Below, one piece after another: positions 1,481 through 19,054 of a DNA stretch of 64,000 bases. The notes under the pieces are model-generated. The model had not been told where the DNA came from, did no database searches, and worked only from the letters and a program-made list of their open reading frames with translations. The stretch comes from Halobacteriovoraceae bacterium (GTDB taxonomy: Bacteria > Bdellovibrionota > Bacteriovoracia > Bacteriovoracales > Bacteriovoracaceae), in assembly GCA_963719505.1 (NCBI GenBank), contig CAVRCF010000001.1, positions 448,001 through 512,000 on the forward strand. The letters run 5' to 3'. Numbering within the stretch: position 1 is the first letter of the stretch; the number at the start of each line of letters is the position of its first letter. A program made the translations under genes and the position numbers.

Positions 1481-2314
1481 ATGGGCTTAAGAATTAAAAC
1501 GAACATTGCCTCACAAGCTGTTCAAAACAACTTAAAAAAAGTAGATCAAAAAACTTCCGATAGTTTTGAGAGGCTATCTTCGGGAAAGAGAATTAACAAG
1601 TCTGCTGATGATGCGGCCGGTTTAGCTATTGCAAACAAAATGCAGGCTGAAGTAATTGGTCTAAAGATGGCAGAGAGAAATGCGAGTAATGGTATTTCAA
1701 TGGTTCAAGTTGCCGAAGGTGGTTTAGAAGAATCATCTAATATTTTAACAAGAATGAGAGAACTCTCAATCCAAGCTGCTTCAGACACAGTGGGTGAACG
1801 AGAAAGAGGGTACTTGAATCTAGAGTACGAACAACTTAATCAAGAAATCGATAGGATTTCTAAGACGACAAAATTTAGTGGTCGAGAACTTCTTACTGGA
1901 GAAGGCGATGGACCTCTAGACTTCCATGTCGGTGCATATGCCGGCGAAGAGAATAGAATTACCTTTGACTCAAGTGAAGCAAACGCAACTTCATCTGGTT
2001 TGGGGATTGACGGTACCAATATTACGAGTAAAGACGATGCCGTCGGAAATTTAGAAAAAATTGATGAAGCAATTGATAAGGTGTCAGGTTTTAGAGCAAA
2101 CCTTGGTTCAATCCAGTCAAGGCTTCAGTCTACAATCTCAAATCTAGGAACTCAGACTGTTAATACCGATGCAGCGAGAAGTAGAATTGAAGATGTTGAT
2201 GTTGCATCAGAGTCAGCAAAACTGGCATCAAGTAATGTTATCAAATCAGCCGCGACTGCTACATTAGTCCAGGCGAATGGAATTTCTAACTCGGCACTTA
2301 GGCTAGTTGGATAA
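1481..2314 (+). CDS. fliC: Flagellin (short, 277 aa, D0/D1 only)
   Basis: ERLSSGKRINKSADDAAGLAI, QVAEGGL, RANLGSIQSRL, SRIEDVDVA. Confidence 0.97.
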   Translation: MGLRIKTNIASQAVQNNLKKVDQKTSDSFERLSSGKRINKSADDAAGLAIANKMQAEVIGLKMAERNASNGISMVQVAEGGLEESSNILTRMRELSIQAASDTVGERERGYLNLEYEQLNQEIDRISKTTKFSGRELLTGEGDGPLDFHVGAYAGEENRITFDSSEANATSSGLGIDGTNITSKDDAVGNLEKIDEAIDKVSGFRANLGSIQSRLQSTISNLGTQTVNTDAARSRIEDVDVASESAKLASSNVIKSAATATLVQANGISNSALRLVG

Positions 2315-3178: not shown

Positions 3179-3937
3179 ATGTCAGTTGTTTCATTTTCAG
3201 ACCTTCATTATTCCCATAAATATCCTAAGTCGAAGCATATTTGGTCGCTCTTTTGCCGCGAACCCAAGGTTCAATCCGCTAAGACAATAGTGCTTCTCGG
3301 TGATATTTTTGACCTCATGATCGGTGCAAAAACTCAGTACATTGACTATTACTTTGACTTTTTTAATGACATAAAAACATTCATTGAAGCGGGGCAAAAG
3401 GTAATTTACGTTGAAGGAAATCATGACTTTCATCTGGAAAAAGTTTTTGAAAAATTCTTGAAAAAATATAAATTGGATGAGGACCTTTTTGAGTATAAAA
3501 AAGATGAATTTATCGTTGAGATAGATGGAAAAAGGATTCTTTTTTGTCACGGTGATCTTGTTGATGACACAAATGAAAGTTTTAAAAAATGGAAATCTAT
3601 CTATCGGAATACAGCGTTTGAGTTTTTCACAAACAATATTCTTCCTTTTTTCTTTATAAAAAAGATAGGGGAGAAGGCTTCAGCTGATTCAAAACAGAGA
3701 AACTCAAGAGCATTTGATTATGAGAAATCTAAAGAGCTTTATAGGGAAGGTGCTGAACGAGTCCTTAGGAACAATAGGGTTGATTACTTAATCGCAGGAC
3801 ACACCCATATTATTGATAACTACCAATCCGTCGATGGACTTTATCTTAATAATGGCTTTCCACTAAAAGACAAAACCTTCATTGAGATTGAAGGTGGTAA
3901 ATGTCACCTCGTCAGTTTAGTGGATTCATGTGAATGA
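3179..3937 (+). CDS. lpxH: UDP-2,3-diacylglucosamine diphosphatase (calcineurin-like metallophosphoesterase)
   Basis: SDLH, LLGDIFD, GNHD, HGD, GHTH motifs; size typical of LpxH. Confidence 0.75.
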   Translation: MSVVSFSDLHYSHKYPKSKHIWSLFCREPKVQSAKTIVLLGDIFDLMIGAKTQYIDYYFDFFNDIKTFIEAGQKVIYVEGNHDFHLEKVFEKFLKKYKLDEDLFEYKKDEFIVEIDGKRILFCHGDLVDDTNESFKKWKSIYRNTAFEFFTNNILPFFFIKKIGEKASADSKQRNSRAFDYEKSKELYREGAERVLRNNRVDYLIAGHTHIIDNYQSVDGLYLNNGFPLKDKTFIEIEGGKCHLVSLVDSCE

Positions 3938-8720: not shown

Positions 8721-10364
8721 CTAGGCTTCCTTTACTCTTTCATTATTGCTCAATTGTGGACCAACCGTCTTTGTTAAGAGGTCGTTCACAATGGCTACTA
8801 AATTCGTTGCTTCGTGAAAAGCAAGCATGTTGCTATTTGTGATCTCTATAATATTATTTCCTGGTGCATTCGCTTTATGAACAAAGAAAAAGTCAGCGAT
8901 AGGTGCAAGATGAGGAAATGCATTTTTTGTCGTTGAGACTAAAGAATCAATTTCACTCAGCTTGTTTACTCTCTCTTGGATCACTGGAACTGAAGGTGAA
9001 TCTTTTTCCGATTCATCGAGTATTTGATTACAAAACTGAAAGCCGTGGCTATAGACCTCAAAAAGATGTTTGGTTCCCTCGAGATGGTGCAGCAGAATAT
9101 TTTCAGTGTCTTTAGAAACTTTTGGAATCTTGCTAGCAAGCTCAATTCCCCTAAAATAATAATTCCATAGAAGTCGATAATAAGACTTAAAAGTATCAGC
9201 TGTATTGGTAAGGTTTTCAGTAATTTCTGTTAAAGCTAAACCACCTTCATCAAAACTTGCTTTAATTATTCTTACTGAGTCCAGCTCTAAAGGTGTACTT
9301 AGTTGAAGTAGGTTTTTAGTATTTATATCTTGCCCTGTAAGACTTAATGAAATAACTGACATCACGGTGTTGAGATTTAAACTTTTATGACATGGCAAAA
9401 GTTCACAAGATGTCTGAAGTTGACATGGAAAACACTTAATCTTCGGAGAGAGGTTAATAACTCTATCGTTGTATGGTGTCGTCTCATGTGGCTTCACGGT
9501 TCCCAAAGAGAGCACAATTGAAGGCATTCTCAAAATACCGGCTAAGTGTGATACCATAGAGTCGTGCCCAATGAATAACTGGGACTCTGAAAGCATATTG
9601 AAAGTATCCTCAACAGAGTTCTTACCAACGACATTTAAAATTCTTTTATTAAATATTTTTAAAATTGGAGCATTTATTATCTGCTCGGCTTTTGAGGCTT
9701 CGTTGGGTGCGCCAACAATATTAATCTCTATTTCTTTGTCTGATTGGAGAATTTTTTCAATTAATTGAGACCACTTACTTGCATCCCACATCTTCCTTTT
9801 ATGTGAAGCAAATGGATGAAGGGTGACGACTTTATTTTTTGGAGTTTTAAAATCAGTTGCAAATGTTTCTTTCGCACCCAAAATACCCTTGAAAACATCA
9901 ACTAGGTTTATTGGACAGTGGGTAGATTCCATGACGTTTGAATAGACATACTGTGACCATTTATCATCGATACCAACTTGTGCCTTCTCATTTCTATAAA
10001 GTCCCATCTTAAGTTTTTCAGAAATTTGAGTCGTTAAGTACGATGAAGACTTATTAAAAGAGAGATTTACAACTAAGTCATACTCATTCTTTTTTACATC
10101 ACTAACAAACTTATGGGTATTTTCAATCGCCTCTCTCAGGTTGATATTGCTTTTATTTAAAAAGTCTTTAGTTTCAAACTCTATGATATTATCAAAAGCT
10201 TCTTTTAGGAGAAATCTCAACTGAGTCGAAAATCTTCTTCTCGTTATAAGTGTCAATTCAAGATTTTGGTGCTCACTTTTTAGCTGCTTTGCTGCTACGT
10301 AGGTTTGTAGAATATCTCCAATACGGGTCAGTTGAATAACGCAAACTTTCATGTTCGTATCCAT
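8721..10364 (-). CDS. Glycosyltransferase family 9 (heptosyltransferase-like) with long helical C-terminal extension
   Basis: IQLTRIGDILQT, LHPFAS...KMW, FIGHDSMVSHLAG, Cys cluster CFPC-x5-C-x4-C. Confidence 0.85.
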   Translation of the reverse strand: MDTNMKVCVIQLTRIGDILQTYVAAKQLKSEHQNLELTLITRRRFSTQLRFLLKEAFDNIIEFETKDFLNKSNINLREAIENTHKFVSDVKKNEYDLVVNLSFNKSSSYLTTQISEKLKMGLYRNEKAQVGIDDKWSQYVYSNVMESTHCPINLVDVFKGILGAKETFATDFKTPKNKVVTLHPFASHKRKMWDASKWSQLIEKILQSDKEIEINIVGAPNEASKAEQIINAPILKIFNKRILNVVGKNSVEDTFNMLSESQLFIGHDSMVSHLAGILRMPSIVLSLGTVKPHETTPYNDRVINLSPKIKCFPCQLQTSCELLPCHKSLNLNTVMSVISLSLTGQDINTKNLLQLSTPLELDSVRIIKASFDEGGLALTEITENLTNTADTFKSYYRLLWNYYFRGIELASKIPKVSKDTENILLHHLEGTKHLFEVYSHGFQFCNQILDESEKDSPSVPVIQERVNKLSEIDSLVSTTKNAFPHLAPIADFFFVHKANAPGNNIIEITNSNMLAFHEATNLVAIVNDLLTKTVGPQLSNNERVKEA

Positions 10365-10495
10365 TATGACTCCTCTTCTATGAGGGACGTAAGTAAAAGA
10401 AGATCTAAGTCTAAGTTTGACAGGTCATTTTGAGTATCAATTTTCTTTTGAAGTGTTTTTAGTGCTTCAGTTATTTCTAATTGTAAGTTGCTCAT
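10364..10495 (-). CDS. Small 43-aa protein MSNLQLEITEALKTLQKKIDTQNDLSNLDLDLLLLTSLIEEES
   Basis: AGGAGG SD 6 nt before ATG; stop TAA overlaps the next ATG (TAATG); fills the gap between the two GT9 genes. Confidence 0.7.
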   Translation of the reverse strand: MSNLQLEITEALKTLQKKIDTQNDLSNLDLDLLLLTSLIEEES

Positions 10496-10535
10496 CTTTA
10501 TCCTCCTGATAATGATTGAACCAGATTTCTAGAAC

Positions 10536-12125
10536 CTATCTATTTGCCTCGGTTACGCCTTCTTCTTGTTCCACTGACACAAGGTCAGTAAGAAGGTTTG
10601 TAAGAGCTTGGAGATCGGTTTTGAGACTAAATAAGTGCTTTTCGATAAGTCTCATATTTTCTTCTGGATTTTCAGAGTTTATACTCTCGATTCTTCCTTC
10701 AAATAAACCAATAGCACCTCTGGTAATTGAGGTTGTTTTCGCTTTTGATATAATCTGGTCAAGGTAGAGAACAAAATTCTTTAAATTACTTTGGGACTGT
10801 TTAGCTCCTTTTAAAGAGCGTAAAGTTGCAAGTAAAAGTTTTACTGCGTTAGTTAACTCATCTTTTGATTGAGTGATGAAAGTTGAAAGTGCAATGGGAT
10901 CAACTGACTTTTTAAGATGGCTGACAAATTGTTTATTGGGTTGAAAGCCCATTAGTTGAAAATGGTATGTTCGTTCAATATGGTAGCGAAGTTCTTCATC
11001 TAATTCTACTGGGCCTCTGATTTGAGTCATTAGGAATCCGTAGTCATCTTCTGTTGTCATATAGATTTTATTTGACGTATGCATTGATGAAATCGGCAAC
11101 TCCGATTCAGTTTCTTGATTAAGAAGAATGAGAATATCGTTGGAGACAAGTTCCTCTCCTTGGTAGATAACAAAGTTATCAGTATTAACGAGTGAAGATC
11201 TTCTTTTCATGTTCTTTGATGATCTAAGCTCAATAGTTCTCGTCTCAATGGCATCAGCAAACATTAAGTGCTCGTTACTTTGTGAAACTAAAAAATCAAG
11301 GTTGAGTGCCACTGATGGAAAAGCAGTTCGATCGGTGTTTATAGAAATTAATTTGTTATCAAATCGCTCGTTTAGTCGATTGACAAGAGTCTTCTCTTTT
11401 TCGGATCCACTCAGAATGAGTACAGCTTTAAAGTTCTCAGAGTCTTCTAAGGCTTCAATGACTTCAGTAATCGATTCTTTGCATATTGGGCTCCCACCAA
11501 ATGATGGAGAGAGACTTATACCTACCATATAGGTCGGTTGCGATGTCTTTAAGGATTGGCGAATTCTGGAAAAATTCGTCGTTGCGACTTGAGTGAACTC
11601 ATTATTAAATTTTACTTTTTTCCCTTCTCTTCTATAAGGAACGGAGCTCATATAGTGTCTCACAAGATGAGAGGGAATAATATCTTCTTCAATATTAGGT
11701 GACACAAAGTTTAGGTAGTTTGACCACACGTTTGACGTTTGAGCAGAGCCAAGTTTTGAAATACTCGTTCCTGTCATATCGTCTGTTGTCATCATAGAAC
11801 AAAGATAAGAGGCAACTGTATCGTTGGAATAATTTATAATCTTATTCCAATGAGTATCGTAGCAAGGGGCCACAGATTTAAAAAAGCTGTTAAGGGCAAA
11901 AGAGTCACTATAAAGTGAGCTTTCAGAGACACTTTTGGCAAAATTTCTATCTATAGAGTAGACTTCAGATATACCGGCGTGTGCACTAAAGAACGTTAGA
12001 AGATCAGAGTAGGTTAAAACACTTATCTCACTGTGAGGATTTTCTTCTTTAAGAGAGCAAATCAAGTGAGTGCTCCCTATGATATCAATGTCGTGAGAGA
12101 GAATAGTGACTAGAATTTTACTCAT
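10536..12125 (-). CDS. Degenerate GT9-like paralogue
   Basis: Same size and layout as 8721..10364 (IINYS vs VVNLS, WSNY vs WSQY, helical tail) but GD and DS-H motifs altered; start taken at the ATG overlapping the end of the upstream gene. Confidence 0.6.
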   Translation of the reverse strand: MSKILVTILSHDIDIIGSTHLICSLKEENPHSEISVLTYSDLLTFFSAHAGISEVYSIDRNFAKSVSESSLYSDSFALNSFFKSVAPCYDTHWNKIINYSNDTVASYLCSMMTTDDMTGTSISKLGSAQTSNVWSNYLNFVSPNIEEDIIPSHLVRHYMSSVPYRREGKKVKFNNEFTQVATTNFSRIRQSLKTSQPTYMVGISLSPSFGGSPICKESITEVIEALEDSENFKAVLILSGSEKEKTLVNRLNERFDNKLISINTDRTAFPSVALNLDFLVSQSNEHLMFADAIETRTIELRSSKNMKRRSSLVNTDNFVIYQGEELVSNDILILLNQETESELPISSMHTSNKIYMTTEDDYGFLMTQIRGPVELDEELRYHIERTYHFQLMGFQPNKQFVSHLKKSVDPIALSTFITQSKDELTNAVKLLLATLRSLKGAKQSQSNLKNFVLYLDQIISKAKTTSITRGAIGLFEGRIESINSENPEENMRLIEKHLFSLKTDLQALTNLLTDLVSVEQEEGVTEANR

Positions 12126-12786
12126 GAGATACCTCGTTTTCTTTGCTGCCTTTAACAAGGGCGTCAAATGCTAGAAGTCCAAAGTCAAAGCGATTGCGAA
12201 TCCCTCGGTTAAGTTTTATGTCCTCAATAACATCCGTTATTGGTTTGTCTAGACTTTCAAAGTCAGTTAAATACATTTGAAGAATATCGGTGAGATCCTC
12301 AACATAAGCCTGCACATGTGTTGGGGCTTTGTATTTCAAAAAAGCTGTGTAGAACTTTTTCTCAATATTAAAAGAAGGATCGTGTTTTATGATAGCGGGC
12401 TTTTGCCTTAAAAAGCTTATGAACTCTGAACTCTTAAAAAGTTCTTCAACATCACTACTATTAATGACTGTGATTGAAGAGTTTTTAAAAGCTCGATATG
12501 TTTTAAAGCCTTCAGCTATTTTAGTATTTGGTTCGAGAACCAAGATATTAAAATGATCGTGATTTTCACTGAGAAGCCTCTCGATCTGATCAATATGATA
12601 TCCAAACCCGAGCCCGAGGACAAGAACGTGATTTGTTACTTTGAGAGTATCGATATACTTTTCTGCGAACGCCTCAGCTTCTTTAGCCGGGTTGTAAACA
12701 GAGTGAAGGTGAATACCTTTAACTACAGGAACGGGTAGTCCATTTCTTGAAGTTTTAATTTCAAACGTCGTCGTGCGTTCATCCAT
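12118..12786 (-). CDS. Maf (motility-associated factor)-like N-terminal domain protein
   Basis: LHSVYNPAKEA and VLVLGLGFGYH motifs of Maf N-termini; too short to include the DUF115 domain; follows fliS/fliT-like. Confidence 0.6.
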   Translation of the reverse strand: MDERTTTFEIKTSRNGLPVPVVKGIHLHSVYNPAKEAEAFAEKYIDTLKVTNHVLVLGLGFGYHIDQIERLLSENHDHFNILVLEPNTKIAEGFKTYRAFKNSSITVINSSDVEELFKSSEFISFLRQKPAIIKHDPSFNIEKKFYTAFLKYKAPTHVQAYVEDLTDILQMYLTDFESLDKPITDVIEDIKLNRGIRNRFDFGLLAFDALVKGSKENEVSHE

Positions 12787-12814
12787 AAGCGCAAACCTTT
12801 AAGTCAAGCATTGC

Positions 12815-13195
12815 TCATTTTAAGCAATTGAGATTATAACCTTTTAAATTTTCTTTGTTTTTAAACACTTTTGCAATTTCTATTTGTGTTTTATCCTTTT
12901 CTTCATCCAATTTTGAGACTATGAAGTCATCGAATTCAGAAATCTTACCTAATAACAGATTTAGTTGGTTATTATAAAGGACTGCATCTTCTTTATGACC
13001 TTCATTTTTTAAACTCGTCTGTTCAAGAGTTAGTCTTTCGTGGACAGTGCAAATGACACTGATGACTTTCTCTCTTTTTTTTATCAAGTCCTCTAGGGCT
13101 TCAAAGTCGCCCATGTTTACTTGGTTTACACACTCTTGTGAAATTTTCACTGCTTTTTCAATTAAATCTGTCAAAAGTGCGTAGTGGTTGTTCAT
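12815..13195 (-). CDS. FliT-like flagellar chaperone
   Basis: 126-aa helical protein after fliS, LIKKREKVI and C-terminal KGY pattern. Confidence 0.55.
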   Translation of the reverse strand: MNNHYALLTDLIEKAVKISQECVNQVNMGDFEALEDLIKKREKVISVICTVHERLTLEQTSLKNEGHKEDAVLYNNQLNLLLGKISEFDDFIVSKLDEEKDKTQIEIAKVFKNKENLKGYNLNCLK

Positions 13196-13599: not shown

Positions 13600-14988
13600 T
13601 TATCCCAGTTGGGTTACAGGGTTTCCACCACCGCCCATTCCGGCGAGACCACTACCTTGTGCCTTTATTCTACTCATTGTTTCTTCAAGCCTAGCAAACT
13701 TTGCTTTGAGCATTTGCTCTTTCTTATCCACATGTCTCTGCTTGCTCACAATCTTTCTATCAATCTGCTTTATCTGACTCTCAAGTCCATGCTTCCTAGA
13801 ACTAAGGACACCGCCTTGAGACTTAAGGGCATCAGAGACGAGTGTGTCCAAGTGATCAATAAAGCCATCGACCTTTCCATTTTCTCTTGTATATTTACCC
13901 GTAATAATCTGCGCGACTTCATCATAATTTTGGTCTAGTTTTGATTTAAGCTTATCTGTATCAAGCTTGAGCATACCATCTCTTTGGAAGGCAAGACCCA
14001 AGTCTCCGATTCGTCTATTACCATAATCAGTAGAAATATTTTTAAAAATACTTCCTCTGATTCTCGACTCTAGAGTTTGTAGCGTTAAATCACCACCAAG
14101 AGTTTGGGATGTATCGACACTTTCATCAAGGGCATTTTGCTCCTTGATAAACTTAATAACGTCATTTATTTTCGCAACGAGGCCATTGATCTTTTCACTA
14201 ATCTTTGCAGTATCTTCTGTAATTTCAATCGTTACTTCATCACCAGGCTTAGCTTTTTTTAGATCTATAGTTGCTCCAGGAATCAGCTCTGTCGTTCTAT
14301 TGGCCGGAACCTCTAATTCAAATCCATCAAGCTTAACCTTGGCATCCTGAGCATCTCTTTGATTATCAAAGTATATATCTTCAACACCGTCGACAAGGTA
14401 TAGTTCTGGAAAGTCGGCTTTTGCATCATCACCTGTGTCTTCAAGTGTAATAATCATTTTCCAAGGTTTGTCAGTGCCATCACGTGAGTTTACAACATTG
14501 GCTAGCATACCATTGTCACTGTCTTTGTTAATGAGTTTCGCAATTCCAGAAAGAGATGAACTATCACTGTCGATGTAGACTTCTTTTGTTTCTCCATCTG
14601 GTAGCTCGTACTGTATATAGCCCACACCAAGGTATGTTTTGTCTTTGTCCTCAACACCATTTGAAATAGCGGATGATTTTTGGGCGAGTTGAATGACTTC
14701 CAGCTGATAGGCACCAGGTTCGGCTATATTTTTGTCGACGCTAACATCGACCCAGTCTTCTGATACATTGACTTGAAATTCTCTGAAGCTTCGAGCGGAT
14801 TTGGAACTATAGATATCTCCGCGTAGATTTTCTACATGCGCTGTAAGATCACCAAGAAGAGCTTTCTTATTCTCTATTTTTCCTTTTCTCACATTCATCT
14901 GCTCCAAAGGTATTTTTTCAGCGGCAACAATTTGCTGAACAATATCTTTTGGTAGACCTGAATTTATTGATCCAAAAGCAATACCCAA
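13600..14988 (-). CDS. fliD: Flagellar filament cap protein FliD
   Basis: GSINSGL, LEVIQLAQ, AQDAKVKLDG, IPGATIDLK, KFARLE; probable TTG start at 14988 after AGGAGG. Confidence 0.95.
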   Translation of the reverse strand: MGIAFGSINSGLPKDIVQQIVAAEKIPLEQMNVRKGKIENKKALLGDLTAHVENLRGDIYSSKSARSFREFQVNVSEDWVDVSVDKNIAEPGAYQLEVIQLAQKSSAISNGVEDKDKTYLGVGYIQYELPDGETKEVYIDSDSSSLSGIAKLINKDSDNGMLANVVNSRDGTDKPWKMIITLEDTGDDAKADFPELYLVDGVEDIYFDNQRDAQDAKVKLDGFELEVPANRTTELIPGATIDLKKAKPGDEVTIEITEDTAKISEKINGLVAKINDVIKFIKEQNALDESVDTSQTLGGDLTLQTLESRIRGSIFKNISTDYGNRRIGDLGLAFQRDGMLKLDTDKLKSKLDQNYDEVAQIITGKYTRENGKVDGFIDHLDTLVSDALKSQGGVLSSRKHGLESQIKQIDRKIVSKQRHVDKKEQMLKAKFARLEETMSRIKAQGSGLAGMGGGGNPVTQLG

Positions 14989-15093
14989 ATGTCCTCCTGA
15001 CTTCGTAAAAGCGCTCCTGCACTTTCTGGGCTTCAGGTATAAGATTATCATAGTAAGAATTTGATGCAATAGGGAACAATTTGAGTTAGAATC

Positions 15094-15128
15094 AAAAAAT
15101 GGCCTGTCTCTTTGGGAAGAAACAGGCC
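15094..15128 (-). terminator. Intrinsic terminator upstream of fliD
   Basis: Minus strand GGCCTGTTTCTT-CCCA-AAGAGACAGGCC (12-bp stem, one G-U) then ATTTTTT. Confidence 0.75.
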
Positions 15129-15178
15129 GTTGGGATTAGGATAAATTGGGTATGGGTTTATGAGCTATTAACTCATAC
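15094..15178 (-). ncRNA. Candidate sigma28-dependent small RNA or attenuated leader (~85 nt)
   Basis: Bounded by a sigma28 promoter and an intrinsic terminator; 5' hairpin UAUGAG/CUCAUA, C-rich linker with repeated CCCA, no credible ORF. Confidence 0.55.
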
Positions 15179-15183
15179 TAATC

Positions 15184-15210
15184 TTGTCGGGTATTATGGA
15201 TAAAACTTTA
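15184..15210 (-). promoter_or_regulatory. sigma28-type promoter facing the fliD operon
   Basis: Minus strand TAAAGTTT-N11-CCCGACAA versus consensus TAAAGTTT-N11-GCCGATAA. Confidence 0.75.
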
Positions 15211-16732
15211 GTAAAAAAGTCGGATATATTAAAAATAAAGTATATATTCTTTATAAGTCGGATAGTTACGTACTTCTCGTTCTTATTAATTCCAATATGG
15301 TTACAAAAATCTGTTGAATCTAACCTAGCAGTTCAGTCAGGTATTTTGTTGATGTACATGATCTTCATGGGCGGTCAGTGGTATTTGCTGGGTAAGGAGA
15401 TCGACCACAGATTGGGGATCTATTATAGGGTAAATTCTTCCATGGATAGAATTCTCTATCGTGTCGTAATGGGAAATATTTTTGTTATAATTTTCTTTAA
15501 CGCTGTCGCATTATTACCGGACTCAGTCGCTCAGGTAATCTTTTGGTGTTTCTATGGATTTCTAGGAATCTTTTATTCATGGCCCACTCGAGGAAAAATC
15601 ATTGAAGAGTCAATGGCCGCACAGTTTAGCGAGTTTAAATTTTTAGATTCCTTTGAGAAAACAGTCTTAGGTTTAACCTTTATCGTAAGCCTATGCTCTT
15701 TACCGGAAATTCCATTATTTGAAAATATTGATGCACTTAAAATGTATTTCGACCCAAGTGAAAAAATTCATATTGGAATATGGGAATTTTTGAAAGTAAA
15801 CTATCTCCCTTTTAATTCTTATCCTCAGTTATATAATTTATCTTGGAGCTATCACTTTTTCTTTAATGGGCTGATGATTTACCTATTGTCTTTTTACGCA
15901 CTCGCTAGGTTTTTTCTTTCTCGCCGCCTCTCAATTTTGGCTGTTTTTTCAGTTGTCTCAACTTGGTCTTTTGCAAAAATTGTAGGTAACAATATTATTC
16001 TCACCTACACTACGACTTTCCTTGTCCTATGGGTGTGGTCGTTTCTATGGACCATTAAAAGTGCAACATATCGTTCAGGTCTCTTTACGGGTCTTGTGCT
16101 AGCTTTTGGAGTGATGTTAAATATTCATTATATTTTTTTACTGCCTGTAACCTTACTCAGCATTTATTTTATACTTTCTTAAAAAAGAAACAACGTGGTT
16201 TAAGCGGCAATGGCTAAAGTATAATATCCTTGGTTTTCTTGTCACTTTAGTCGTTTCTCTGACTCACTTTGAGATGGGAAAAATGTTTTCTGGAGAATCG
16301 TTTTCTTTTCTTTATGCAATATTGGCAGAGTTTATTTATAGGAAAGCTTTCTACGTGCTTTCTTTCTTTGGAGTTTTTCTCGTTTTATGCTTCAAGTTTA
16401 ATTTCCTTAAAAGGTATTTGTCATTAGTGACTTTCGACAAAGAGAGATTTAATCAATTGTTTTTCTGTGTCTGTGTCATAATAGTTTTTGGATTAACTTT
16501 TAGTAAAGTTTACTTGGAAGGTTTTTCTCTGTTATGGATTATTGCTTTTCTTTGCTTAATTCCACTCGAATGGATTTTCCAATCTATCAGTCGCCTTAGA
16601 TCGAAAAGAAATATCATCTACACGCTCTACATCCTTGTATGCCTATTAGACTCACACCTAGAGGGACGTATCAGAATTATGGGAAAACTTTTTCTAAATG
16701 AAGAGGTTTATAAGTATATCAATCAAATGTAA
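15196..16732 (+). pseudogene. Polytopic membrane protein (possibly GT-C-like) split by one +1 frameshift near 16170
   Basis: ORFs 15184..16182 and 16274..16732 are joined by an open +1 frame (YFLKKETTWFKRQWLKYNILGF...); may be a sequencing error. Confidence 0.6.
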
Positions 16733-18145: not shown

Positions 18146-19054
18146 GTGCTAACAAAAAATCACCTTACAAAAATTCAAAGTTCTATTTTAATCGAAGGAG
18201 AGCCTGGCAGCGGAAAGAGTCATCTTGCAAAATGGGTTCACAACAACTCAGATAGATCTGAGAAAAACTTTATTCAAGTCAATATTGCGAGTCTTCACAA
18301 AGGTCTTTTTGAGAGCGAACTTTTTGGTCACAAAAAGGGAAGCTTTACAGGGGCACATATGGATAAGGAAGGTTTTTGTTCCAAAGCTCAAAGAGGAACA
18401 CTTTTTATCGACGAAATCGGTGAACTCTTTCTCGACCAACAAAAAGCCCTACTCAGCTTATTAGAGGAGAGAATATACTATCCTGTCGGCTCTAGCGAAA
18501 AATTGCATTTCAACGGAACTTTTATTTTTGCCACAAATAAAAATCTGGAAAAAGAAGTTGAAAGAGGGAACTTCAGAGAAGACCTCTATCATCGCCTAAG
18601 GGCTTATAGTTTTCAAACCCAACGATTTAGTCAGTGGAGAGATAAAAAGTTTATTATTTTGGAGGAGTTTGAGAAGGCTAAGATTAAACATGATAAAAAA
18701 AACTTAATTCTCTCCTCTGAGATAAAACAGTTTCTTTATTCTTACGATTTTCCGGGAAACTTCAGAGAACTTCTTCAAATAATAGACTATTGCACTTTTA
18801 TTGCTGAAAATAGAGTCGAAATCGTCCACCTTCCGATTTGGACAAAGTCTAGGCCTGAACAAAAACCCATGACAGATAGCTACTACGAGGCTTTGGAGAG
18901 CTTTGAGTCAGTCTTCTTAAAAAGGAAACTCGAAAAGTATCAAGGCAGAATAAACTACACGGCACAAATGGTGAAAATAAGTAAGGTTACATTGATTTCA
19001 AAGATAAAAAAATATGGTATTAATATACAAGAGTTTAAAATGATTAATGTTTAG
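18146..19054 (+). CDS. sigma54-dependent enhancer-binding protein lacking an N-terminal regulatory domain
   Basis: GEPGSGKS near the N-terminus, ESELFGHKKGSFTGA, FIDEIG, FREDLYHRL, FPGNFREL, C-terminal Fis-type HTH. Confidence 0.92.
   Translation: MLTKNHLTKIQSSILIEGEPGSGKSHLAKWVHNNSDRSEKNFIQVNIASLHKGLFESELFGHKKGSFTGAHMDKEGFCSKAQRGTLFIDEIGELFLDQQKALLSLLEERIYYPVGSSEKLHFNGTFIFATNKNLEKEVERGNFREDLYHRLRAYSFQTQRFSQWRDKKFIILEEFEKAKIKHDKKNLILSSEIKQFLYSYDFPGNFRELLQIIDYCTFIAENRVEIVHLPIWTKSRPEQKPMTDSYYEALESFESVFLKRKLEKYQGRINYTAQMVKISKVTLISKIKKYGINIQEFKMINV

Follow-up and report, generated by a model that had tools for sequence, protein, structure and literature searches.

A predicted sigma-28-dependent small RNA upstream of fliD in the Halobacteriovoraceae, with flagellin leaders as its best-supported targets

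The stretch of DNA analysed here, 64,000 nucleotides (nt) from a Halobacteriovoraceae bacterium (assembly GCA_963719505.1, contig CAVRCF010000001.1, positions 448,001 to 512,000) and hereafter termed the window, carries the filament cap gene fliD with fliS downstream of it, a divergently oriented gene for a multi-pass membrane protein, and a flagellin gene. Between fliD and the divergent gene lies the subject of this report, a compact unit composed of a sigma-28 (FliA) type promoter, a predicted small RNA (sRNA) and an intrinsic terminator (Table 1). An initial annotation, made from the sequence alone, had proposed that this unit specifies a multi-seed flagellar sRNA pairing with fliD and flagellin start regions, a cis attenuator of fliD, or a sponge for a protein that binds CCCA motifs. 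The promoter, the 5' hairpin, the C-rich linker with its CCCA and CCUA motifs and the terminator with a CCCA loop all lie where that annotation placed them and fold as it described, and its estimate of about 105 nt between terminator and fliD agrees with the true fliD start, the TTG codon at 14988, residue 1 of which aligns in 21 of 21 loci.

Table 1. Features at the fliD-upstream locus and the flagellin gene of the window (positions are those of the window)
Feature	Position	Strand	Basis
Flagellin, start AUGGGCUUA; predicted weaker partner of UAAACCCAU	1481-2314	+	NCBIfam flagellin
fliS, downstream of fliD	13584-13192	-	Pfam FliS
fliD (filament cap)	14988-13600	-	Pfam FliD_N, FliD_C; NCBIfam
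fliD Shine-Dalgarno AGGAGG and TTG start, site complementary to AUACCCAA...UCCU	14998-14986	-	sequence
Sigma-70-like promoter, extended -10, TTGCAT-N14-TGATAATCT	15069-15042	-	consensus match alone
Intrinsic terminator including T-run	15128-15094	-	terminator scan
Unpaired G-free C-rich 30-nt linker, predicted seed region	15158-15129	-	fold and sequence
5' hairpin, 8 bp, 3-nt loop	15177-15159	-	fold prediction
Predicted small RNA, ~86 nt	15179-15094	-	5' end from promoter spacing, 3' end at T-run
Sigma-28 type -10 element CCCGACAA	15191-15184	-	sequence reading
Sigma-28 (FliA) type -35 element TAAAGTTT	15210-15203	-	sequence reading
Divergent gene, 328-aa membrane protein, no known family	15196-16182	+	open reading frame, cross-genome comparison

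The two promoter elements, TAAAGTTT and CCCGACAA, are separated by a spacer of 11 nt, the whole promoter spanning 15210-15184 on the minus strand, and this FliA-consensus arrangement stands directly upstream of the RNA, as is characteristic of the class of sigma-28-dependent sRNAs. It agrees with the attack-phase consensus reported for Bdellovibrio, TTAAG-N16-CCGATA (PMC3627812). About six bases past the -10 element the sequence reads AGUA and then enters the 5' hairpin; from the promoter spacing the transcript would begin at this AGUA, and it would end at the T-run. Both the transcription of the unit and its dependence on sigma-28 are predicted from these signals. The linker contains the motifs AAACCCAU, ACCCAA, AUCCUAA and AUCCCAA, and the terminator consists of a stem (15128-15101) of 12 pairs, six of them G-C, with the loop CCCA at 15116-15113 and six T residues at 15099-15094. 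When folded in full, the 86-nt RNA yields the 5' hairpin, the unpaired linker and the terminator at -26.3 kcal/mol (z-score -7.2; none of 200 shuffles was as stable), and no alternative antiterminator fold was seen in this prediction. As in the class of sigma-28-dependent flagellar sRNAs, the unit has a terminator of its own and appears non-coding, its sole open reading frame (ORF) being Met-Ser-stop; no ORF is conserved across the 42 sRNA copies compared in this work, of which 37 are linked to fliD and 5 are unlinked. A search of the whole window against Rfam 15 at gathering thresholds returned no match, and at E <= 10 the region 14950-15260 gave two plus-strand hits at chance level (15 bits where the threshold is 39, and 9.4 bits where it is 40).

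To place the unit in a wider context, genomes were sampled from the family of the window, whose records bear the titles Bacteriovoracaceae, Halobacteriovoraceae, Bacteriovorax stolpii or Peredibacter; FliD is present in 186 of the 201 family genomes sampled. The 450-560 nt upstream of fliD were gathered from 53 genomes, nearly all of different genera, and scored for a match to CTAAAGTTT-N11-13-CCGATAA with a cut-off of at least 14. Thirty-eight loci pass, of which one (L045) was set aside, its promoter match lying within what resembles coding sequence and being followed by no RNA module. The arrangement CTAAAGTTT-N12-CCGAYAA thus occurs upstream of fliD in 37 of 53 genus-level loci, with the CCGA of the -10 element invariant in the alignment, and in all 37 it is followed by (A/G)GUA, usually by a hairpin of unrelated sequence, then by a linker with little G and a terminator. 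R1, a covariance model built on the promoter together with the RNA, matches at E <= 1e-5 in 106 of 151 family genomes, representing 45 of 69 genera; when genomes from across the phylum were sampled, it matched 19 of 23 from the family and none of 127 from 24 other families. The R1 score comes partly from the promoter, and the counts, which serve to locate the unit, are by themselves no proof of RNA homology. Within the genome from which the window derives (the own genome, G000, of an uncultured bacterium), R1 finds a single copy, with one strong match at 92.2 bits and the next at 25.4 bits. Conservation in relatives, which the initial annotation had named as a check of its proposal, is therefore observed within the family and not in the other families of the phylum that were sampled, and because the unit recurs in 106 of 151 family genomes its whole architecture is, on the sequence evidence, far beyond chance. 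Eight weaker R1 hits (34.6-47.4 bits) were considered as sRNA paralogs and rejected, as they proved to be sigma-28 promoters before coding sequence. A further feature of the sigma-28 promoters of the family (L174-L181 and the G000 flagellin promoters) is a shared (T)AGTA about 5 nt past the -10 element, which precedes mRNA and sRNA alike and is probably start-site context.

Constraint at the level of RNA structure is evident in the terminator. All eight modelled terminator pairs vary on both sides through compensatory changes; 86.0% of terminator cells are paired as against 67.2 +/- 1.4% in shuffles, and the covariation score of 0.513 (0.179 in shuffles) is reached by none of 500 shuffles; the terminator helix thus covaries. 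When the 3' partners are slid by 1-3 columns, pairing falls to 20-60%. Folding predicts a 5' hairpin, 5 bp or longer, for 37 of the 42 copies, without conservation of its sequence, and the linkers, 770 nt in total, contain 6.4% G and 30.3% C. The terminator loop (+/-2 nt) carries CCCA or CCCC in 32 copies, CCCA in 30 of them, the exceptions including a small group with GUUCA in the loop (L009, L025, L027, L028); as a background, among 384 terminator-like hairpins of the own genome CCCA occurs in the loop of one, that of the sRNA itself, and CCCC in four. An excess of 12-15-mer complements to the terminator-loop region was traced to common coding words (Leu-Pro-Lys, Phe-Gly-Lys) and revealed no repeat or UGGG-loop partner.

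Copies of the unit also occur away from fliD. The promoter is missing upstream of fliD in 16 genomes, and in 4 of these the R1 search recovered full copies elsewhere: two in G017 (71.8 and 44.6 bits) and one each in G052 (68.8 bits), G076 (64.3 bits) and G004 (51.4 bits; it shares a contig with fliD but lies about 1.1 Mb away). All are built from the modules described above, with linkers that are richer still in motifs of the CCCCAAA/CCUCGAA type. Their neighbours are unrelated genes, among them rplM-rpsI, a peptidase M1 gene, a response regulator gene beside AhpC, and an endonuclease I gene, and neither fliD, fliS nor the divergent membrane-protein gene was present in any of the 20 loci of unlinked model hits. 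Because full copies are unlinked to fliD in four genomes, linkage to fliD is not obligate, as it would be for a cis attenuator, and we regard the unit as a free-standing gene rather than a cis leader of fliD; that an independent sRNA gene exists seems to us very probable.

The targets that are best supported on present sequence comparisons are flagellin start regions. A recurrent type of flagellin leader was first noticed in the upstream regions of four other genomes: a strong Shine-Dalgarno sequence is followed by a five-codon ORF (Met/Ile-x-x-Gly-Asp-stop) whose GGA-GAU codons form the flagellin's own Shine-Dalgarno sequence and whose stop codon lies 1-3 nt before the flagellin AUG-GGN, an overlap that suggests translational coupling. 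The corresponding pattern, GGAGANTAR-N1-3-ATGGG, occurs at 60 places in 34 of 41 sRNA-bearing genomes, compared with 10 for a reversed control. Thirty-eight of the 60 places, from 24 genomes, are flagellin leaders (MG[LFIM]R follows), 35 of these have the in-frame short ORF, and one instance is found in the own genome (G000 C1:849245-849300). No five-codon flagellin leader ORF was found described in a literature search on it. Several flagellin leaders (L198, L203, L214, L229, L233, L243) contain, in addition, a short hairpin with an A(A/C)GGA loop about 10-15 nt ahead of their first Shine-Dalgarno sequence; this hairpin resembles CsrA binding sites.

The arrangement of the linker mirrors that of the leader. 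Immediately 5' of the terminator, the linker is antisense to the last codons of the leader ORF and to the Shine-Dalgarno sequence of the flagellin; closer to the 5' end, a CCCA(U/A) motif is complementary to the flagellin start codon together with codons 2-3. When each linker was paired with the leader of its own genome and with those of the others, own pairs were favoured across 22 genomes (-13.30 vs -11.36 kcal/mol, permutation p=0.0001; p=0.0042 by helix score), the best own duplex covering the Shine-Dalgarno core in 20 of the 22 and reaching the start codon in 16. Predicted anti-ribosome-binding-site pairing that co-varies between partners is thus found for the flagellin leaders. Underlying it are matched changes in sRNA and leader: CUCGAA/UUCGAG in G006, G016, G018, G066 and G077, with 14 contiguous pairs including G-U in the G016 duplex; CUCGUA/UACGAG in G079; CCCCAAAU/AUUUGGGG in G052; UCCUAAAU/AUUUAGGA in G002; and AAUCUAAUU/GAUUAGAUU in G069. 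At codons 2-3, UAAUCCCA/UGGGAUUA is found where the flagellin reads GGA-UUA and AAACCCAU/AUGGGUUU where it reads GGU-UU, which bears out across genomes the suggestion in the initial annotation that UAAACCCAU and UAAUCCCA fit different Met-Gly-Leu codon choices. Even sRNA variants without CCCA (G054, G082) pair with their own flagellin start regions. Within the own genome, where five flagellins start AUGGG(U/C), the reported pairing of UAAACCCAU with 8 of 9 positions at the start of the window flagellin is present, and a paralog at G000 C1:547948 offers a perfect 9-mer match, AUGGGUUUA. Ranked by duplex with the linker among 3651 own-genome start regions called by a crude ORF and Shine-Dalgarno rule, the window flagellin stands at 688 (-10.7 kcal/mol), and its paralogs outside the window stand at 3 (C5:674314), 84 (C1:849249, of the leader-ORF type) and 190 (C1:547948).

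We lean towards the view that the unit encodes a sigma-28-driven, trans-acting sRNA that would pair with flagellin leaders over their ribosome-binding sites and lower or tune translation, forming an incoherent feed-forward loop with sigma-28. Several observations weigh against it. Of the six own flagellins, two that do not start Met-Gly come last or close to it, at 3469 and 3651 of 3651; a rank-sum test on the whole set gives p=0.13, which is not significant. No flagellar family is represented among the 18 best-placed own-genome candidates (PhoX, a cation efflux protein, ThiF and others), which were treated as noise. The permutation treats 22 kin genomes as independent, so that its p overstates independence; the distinct paired states number roughly 5-7, not 22, and the commonest of them, CUCGAA/UUCGAG, may go back to a single inherited change. 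The set of flagellin leaders covers only 24 of the 41 sRNA-bearing genomes. The leader pattern is present in 12 of 18 genomes without an R1 match, as compared with 34 of 41 with the sRNA, which amounts to no clear association and means that target site and sRNA do not co-occur exclusively. A search of the own genome, at 83.5% completeness, did not reveal Hfq. Finally, the most conserved motif of the RNA, the terminator-loop CCCA, lies 3' of the anti-Shine-Dalgarno segment, a position from which the antiparallel duplex could not be continued to the start codon; the motif may instead act as a first-contact loop, as a seed for other paralogs or as a protein site.

Other readings of the unit have to be weighed against pairing with flagellin leaders. 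In one, the sRNA acts chiefly on fliD, AUACCCAA...UCCU blocking the Shine-Dalgarno sequence and UUG start and shutting off cap synthesis once sigma-28 is active. The complementarity on which the initial annotation built this idea does exist (AUACCCAA/UUGGGUAU plus UCCU/AGGA), the sRNA gene lies directly upstream of fliD in most genomes, and the unusual fliD start is kept across the family, being TTG in almost every genome (few have CTG, GTG or ATG), usually preceded by AGGAGGA and followed by GGN, mostly as TTGGGN. Moreover, when the own fliD start is compared with 700 background start regions for each of the 42 sRNAs, it falls at the median 9th percentile and in the top 10% in 23 cases. This advantage, however, is largely common to any start region that combines GGAGG with xUG-GGN, of which the own genome has only 7 among 3651, and the rank of fliD there (85 by duplex energy, 151 by best contiguous helix, 79 with a -28..+10 window) is not above chance in one genome. 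No co-variation accompanies the complementarity: own pairs score -11.57 and cross pairs -11.28 kcal/mol (n=22, p=0.31 by permutation), and own pairs are distributed evenly over the ranks. Eleven sRNA-bearing genomes keep the CCCA loop despite fliD starts such as TTGTCG, TTGAGT or TTGGCA, a clade with the fliD start UUGGGG has sRNA variants without a CCCCA loop, and TTGGG is kept in genomes with no sRNA upstream. Of the multi-seed proposal, then, the sigma-28-type promoter, the terminator, the C-rich seeds and the flagellin pairing are supported, and fliD as the specific partner is not; a principal action on fliD appears unlikely, while its similar GGAGGA...UUGGG signature leaves it as what may be a secondary target. 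A 9-nt match of fliS, UCCUAAUCC/GGAUUAGGA at codons 3-6, was also considered and rejected, since it is not kept in other clades although the fliS sequence is. Known sponge RNAs display a repeated motif in loops, and the retention of CCCA or CCCC in 32 of 42 terminator loops, a feature left unexplained by an antiparallel duplex with flagellin, invites the reading that the CCCA repeats of linker and hairpin loop titrate a protein that binds C-rich RNA. We judge this distinctly unlikely. No candidate binding protein was identified, the CsrA of the own genome recognises GGA and not CCCA (PMC4894983), where the linker varies it does so in step with the flagellin leaders, as would not be required of a protein site, and the variants that have lost CCCA retain their pairing with flagellin start regions.

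The two remaining readings turn on the position of the gene rather than on its linker. If sigma-28 transcription of fliD began at this promoter and the terminator set the degree of read-through, the unit would be a cis leader or attenuator, in keeping with its shared orientation with fliD, its place immediately upstream in most genomes and the weak T-tails of 6 of the 37 fliD-linked copies. The unlinked copies speak against this option, as do the strong terminators with T5-T9 in most copies and the lack of an alternative antiterminator fold. Between the sRNA terminator and fliD there is also a sigma-70-like box, and in 29 of 53 loci (20 of the 37 that carry the sRNA and 9 of the 16 that lack it) the regular expression TTGCA...TGnTAnnnT is matched 36-113 nt ahead of fliD, so that a promoter-like element often follows the terminator. 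(A sigma-54 reading of this conserved box was rejected by eye, its GG/GC spacing being unfit.) The cis attenuator of the initial annotation is thus disfavoured, and we consider it highly improbable. Least credible of all is an action on the divergent membrane-protein gene, through promoter occupancy or through antisense overlap with its 5' untranslated region. The ATG of this gene at 15196 does lie inside the sigma-28 promoter spacer, its start and conserved first codons (M-x-K/N-T-L) being encoded by the spacer and -35 element of the opposite-strand promoter, and a homologue sits beside fliD in 54 of 54 fliD loci, always divergent; the encoded 328-residue protein has no Pfam or NCBIfam match. 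Yet the unlinked sRNA copies have no such neighbour, the gene pair is kept without the promoter in 16 of 53 loci, and neither the C-rich linker nor its co-variation with flagellin leaders would be accounted for.

Returning to an sRNA directed at flagellin leaders, the proposed mechanism can be outlined as follows. The gene would belong to the sigma-28 regulon of late flagellar or attack-phase genes and be switched on together with the late flagellar genes. Its 5' hairpin is probably a stability module, and the unstructured, G-poor and C-rich linker would provide the seed region, its 3' part pairing with the flagellin Shine-Dalgarno sequence GGAGAU and the final codons of the leader ORF, and CCCA(U/A) further 5' pairing with the start codon and the Gly-2 codon (xUG-GGN). 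Because the duplex would cover the ribosome-binding site, repression or tuning of flagellin translation is the expected outcome, and as sigma-28 is expected to drive the flagellin genes too, the circuit would constitute an incoherent feed-forward loop. Selective action on some of the several flagellin paralogs is conceivable. How the RNA pairs in the cell, in which direction it acts and what its terminator loop does are predictions from sequence comparison. The own genome encodes CsrA and FlgM, and the CsrA-like sites of several flagellin leaders suggest that control by the sRNA is probably superimposed on that by CsrA. As a separate observation, csrA (C1:257718-257873) adjoins a flgL-like gene in this genome.

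A more elaborate version of this model, which we put forward as a speculation of rather low probability, portrays the sRNA as a paralog-selective multi-seed regulator. Each of the CCCA-type motifs would read which synonymous codons are used at flagellin positions 2-3 (GGU-UUx vs GGA-UUA) and the anti-Shine-Dalgarno segment would read the variable codons of the leader ORF, such that sigma-28 activity would decide which of 5-10 paralogs are translated late and, in conjunction with leader-ORF coupling and the CsrA system, would program the composition of the filament along its length. The terminator-loop CCCA would then serve as a kissing-loop first contact for xUG-GGN.

Regulatory RNAs with related features have been described in several bacteria. 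The sigma-28 sRNAs of E. coli are Hfq-dependent, and in the UCCC-motif sRNAs of the Firmicutes the C-rich motifs are repeated in loops and linkers. The closest functional relatives of the RNA described here are CjNC1 and CjNC4 of Campylobacter jejuni (CJnc10/CJnc170, FlmR). These are sigma-28-dependent sRNAs that pair with the ribosome-binding sites of flagellar mRNAs, including that of the flagellin flaB, and they share with the present RNA a sigma-28 promoter, a single-stranded interaction region, a terminator hairpin and a feedback role in the flagellar cascade (PMC4626219); overexpression of CJnc170 leads to shorter flagella (PMC11187230). As they belong to another phylum, the resemblance is functional only, and homology across phyla is not expected. 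Furthermore, the targets of CjNC1 and CjNC4 are sigma-54-dependent middle genes, whereas here they would be flagellin leaders with a five-codon upstream ORF, and the present RNA differs in its several C-rich seeds, its 5' hairpin, the conserved CCCA of its terminator loop and the usual location of its gene beside fliD. The E. coli sRNAs UhpU, MotR, FliX and FlgO are likewise sigma-28-dependent and act post-transcriptionally on flagella synthesis, but they derive from untranslated regions (PMC10578931), in contrast to the RNA reported here, which has its own promoter and terminator, no sequence relation to them and no Rfam match. With the UCCC-motif sRNAs of the Firmicutes (RsaE/RoxS, the Staphylococcus Rsa RNAs, Listeria LhrC) it shares unpaired C-rich motifs that pair with a G-rich Shine-Dalgarno sequence (PMC2790875, PMC4132741), but the regulons and phyla differ, there is no sequence relation, the promoter is here of the sigma-28 type, and the C-rich motif would also read the start codon and Gly codon (xUG-GGN). 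Within the same phylum, FliA is the global attack-phase sigma factor of Bdellovibrio bacteriovorus, in which three of eight attack-phase sRNAs (APsRNA3, 6 and 7), of unknown function, have FliA promoters as here; they are larger, at 128-655 nt, no homology outside B. bacteriovorus was reported for the attack-phase sRNAs, and the available text of the report ties none of the three to fliD or the flagellins (PMC3627812). Literature searches found no described sRNA of the Bacteriovoracaceae.

Taken on the sequence comparisons above, the unit appears to represent a new RNA family of a known functional kind, the sigma-28-dependent flagellar sRNA acting against ribosome-binding sites, and the sigma-28 feedback sRNA seen here is probably an independent invention. 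It would extend sigma-28 sRNA feedback on flagellar mRNAs, known in E. coli and Campylobacter, to a third phylum, and to obligate predators, for which swimming is central to finding prey and in which sigma-28 governs the whole attack phase. As a putative post-transcriptional layer on flagellin synthesis, the element comes with predicted base pairs and with natural compensatory variants, and it draws attention to a conserved five-codon leader ORF before flagellin genes.

Several additional features of the own genome and of the window merit mention. Outside the window, a second sigma-28-like promoter (TTAAGTTTT...GTCCGATAA; G000 C1:668344-668481, plus strand) is followed by AGUA, a 5' hairpin and, about 100 nt later, a strong terminator; it has no CCCA motifs and constitutes a second candidate sigma-28 sRNA. 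Downstream of fliS there are two small ORFs without a known family and then two large proteins (in the region 8721-12167 and 12118-13195, minus strand) with weak similarity to lipopolysaccharide heptosyltransferases, which possibly function in flagellin glycosylation. Lastly, 3 kb from fliD, positions 18146-19054 of the plus strand encode a 302-residue protein resembling sigma-54 activators, with AAA+ and DNA-binding parts similar to those of FlgR and FlbD and without a receiver domain.

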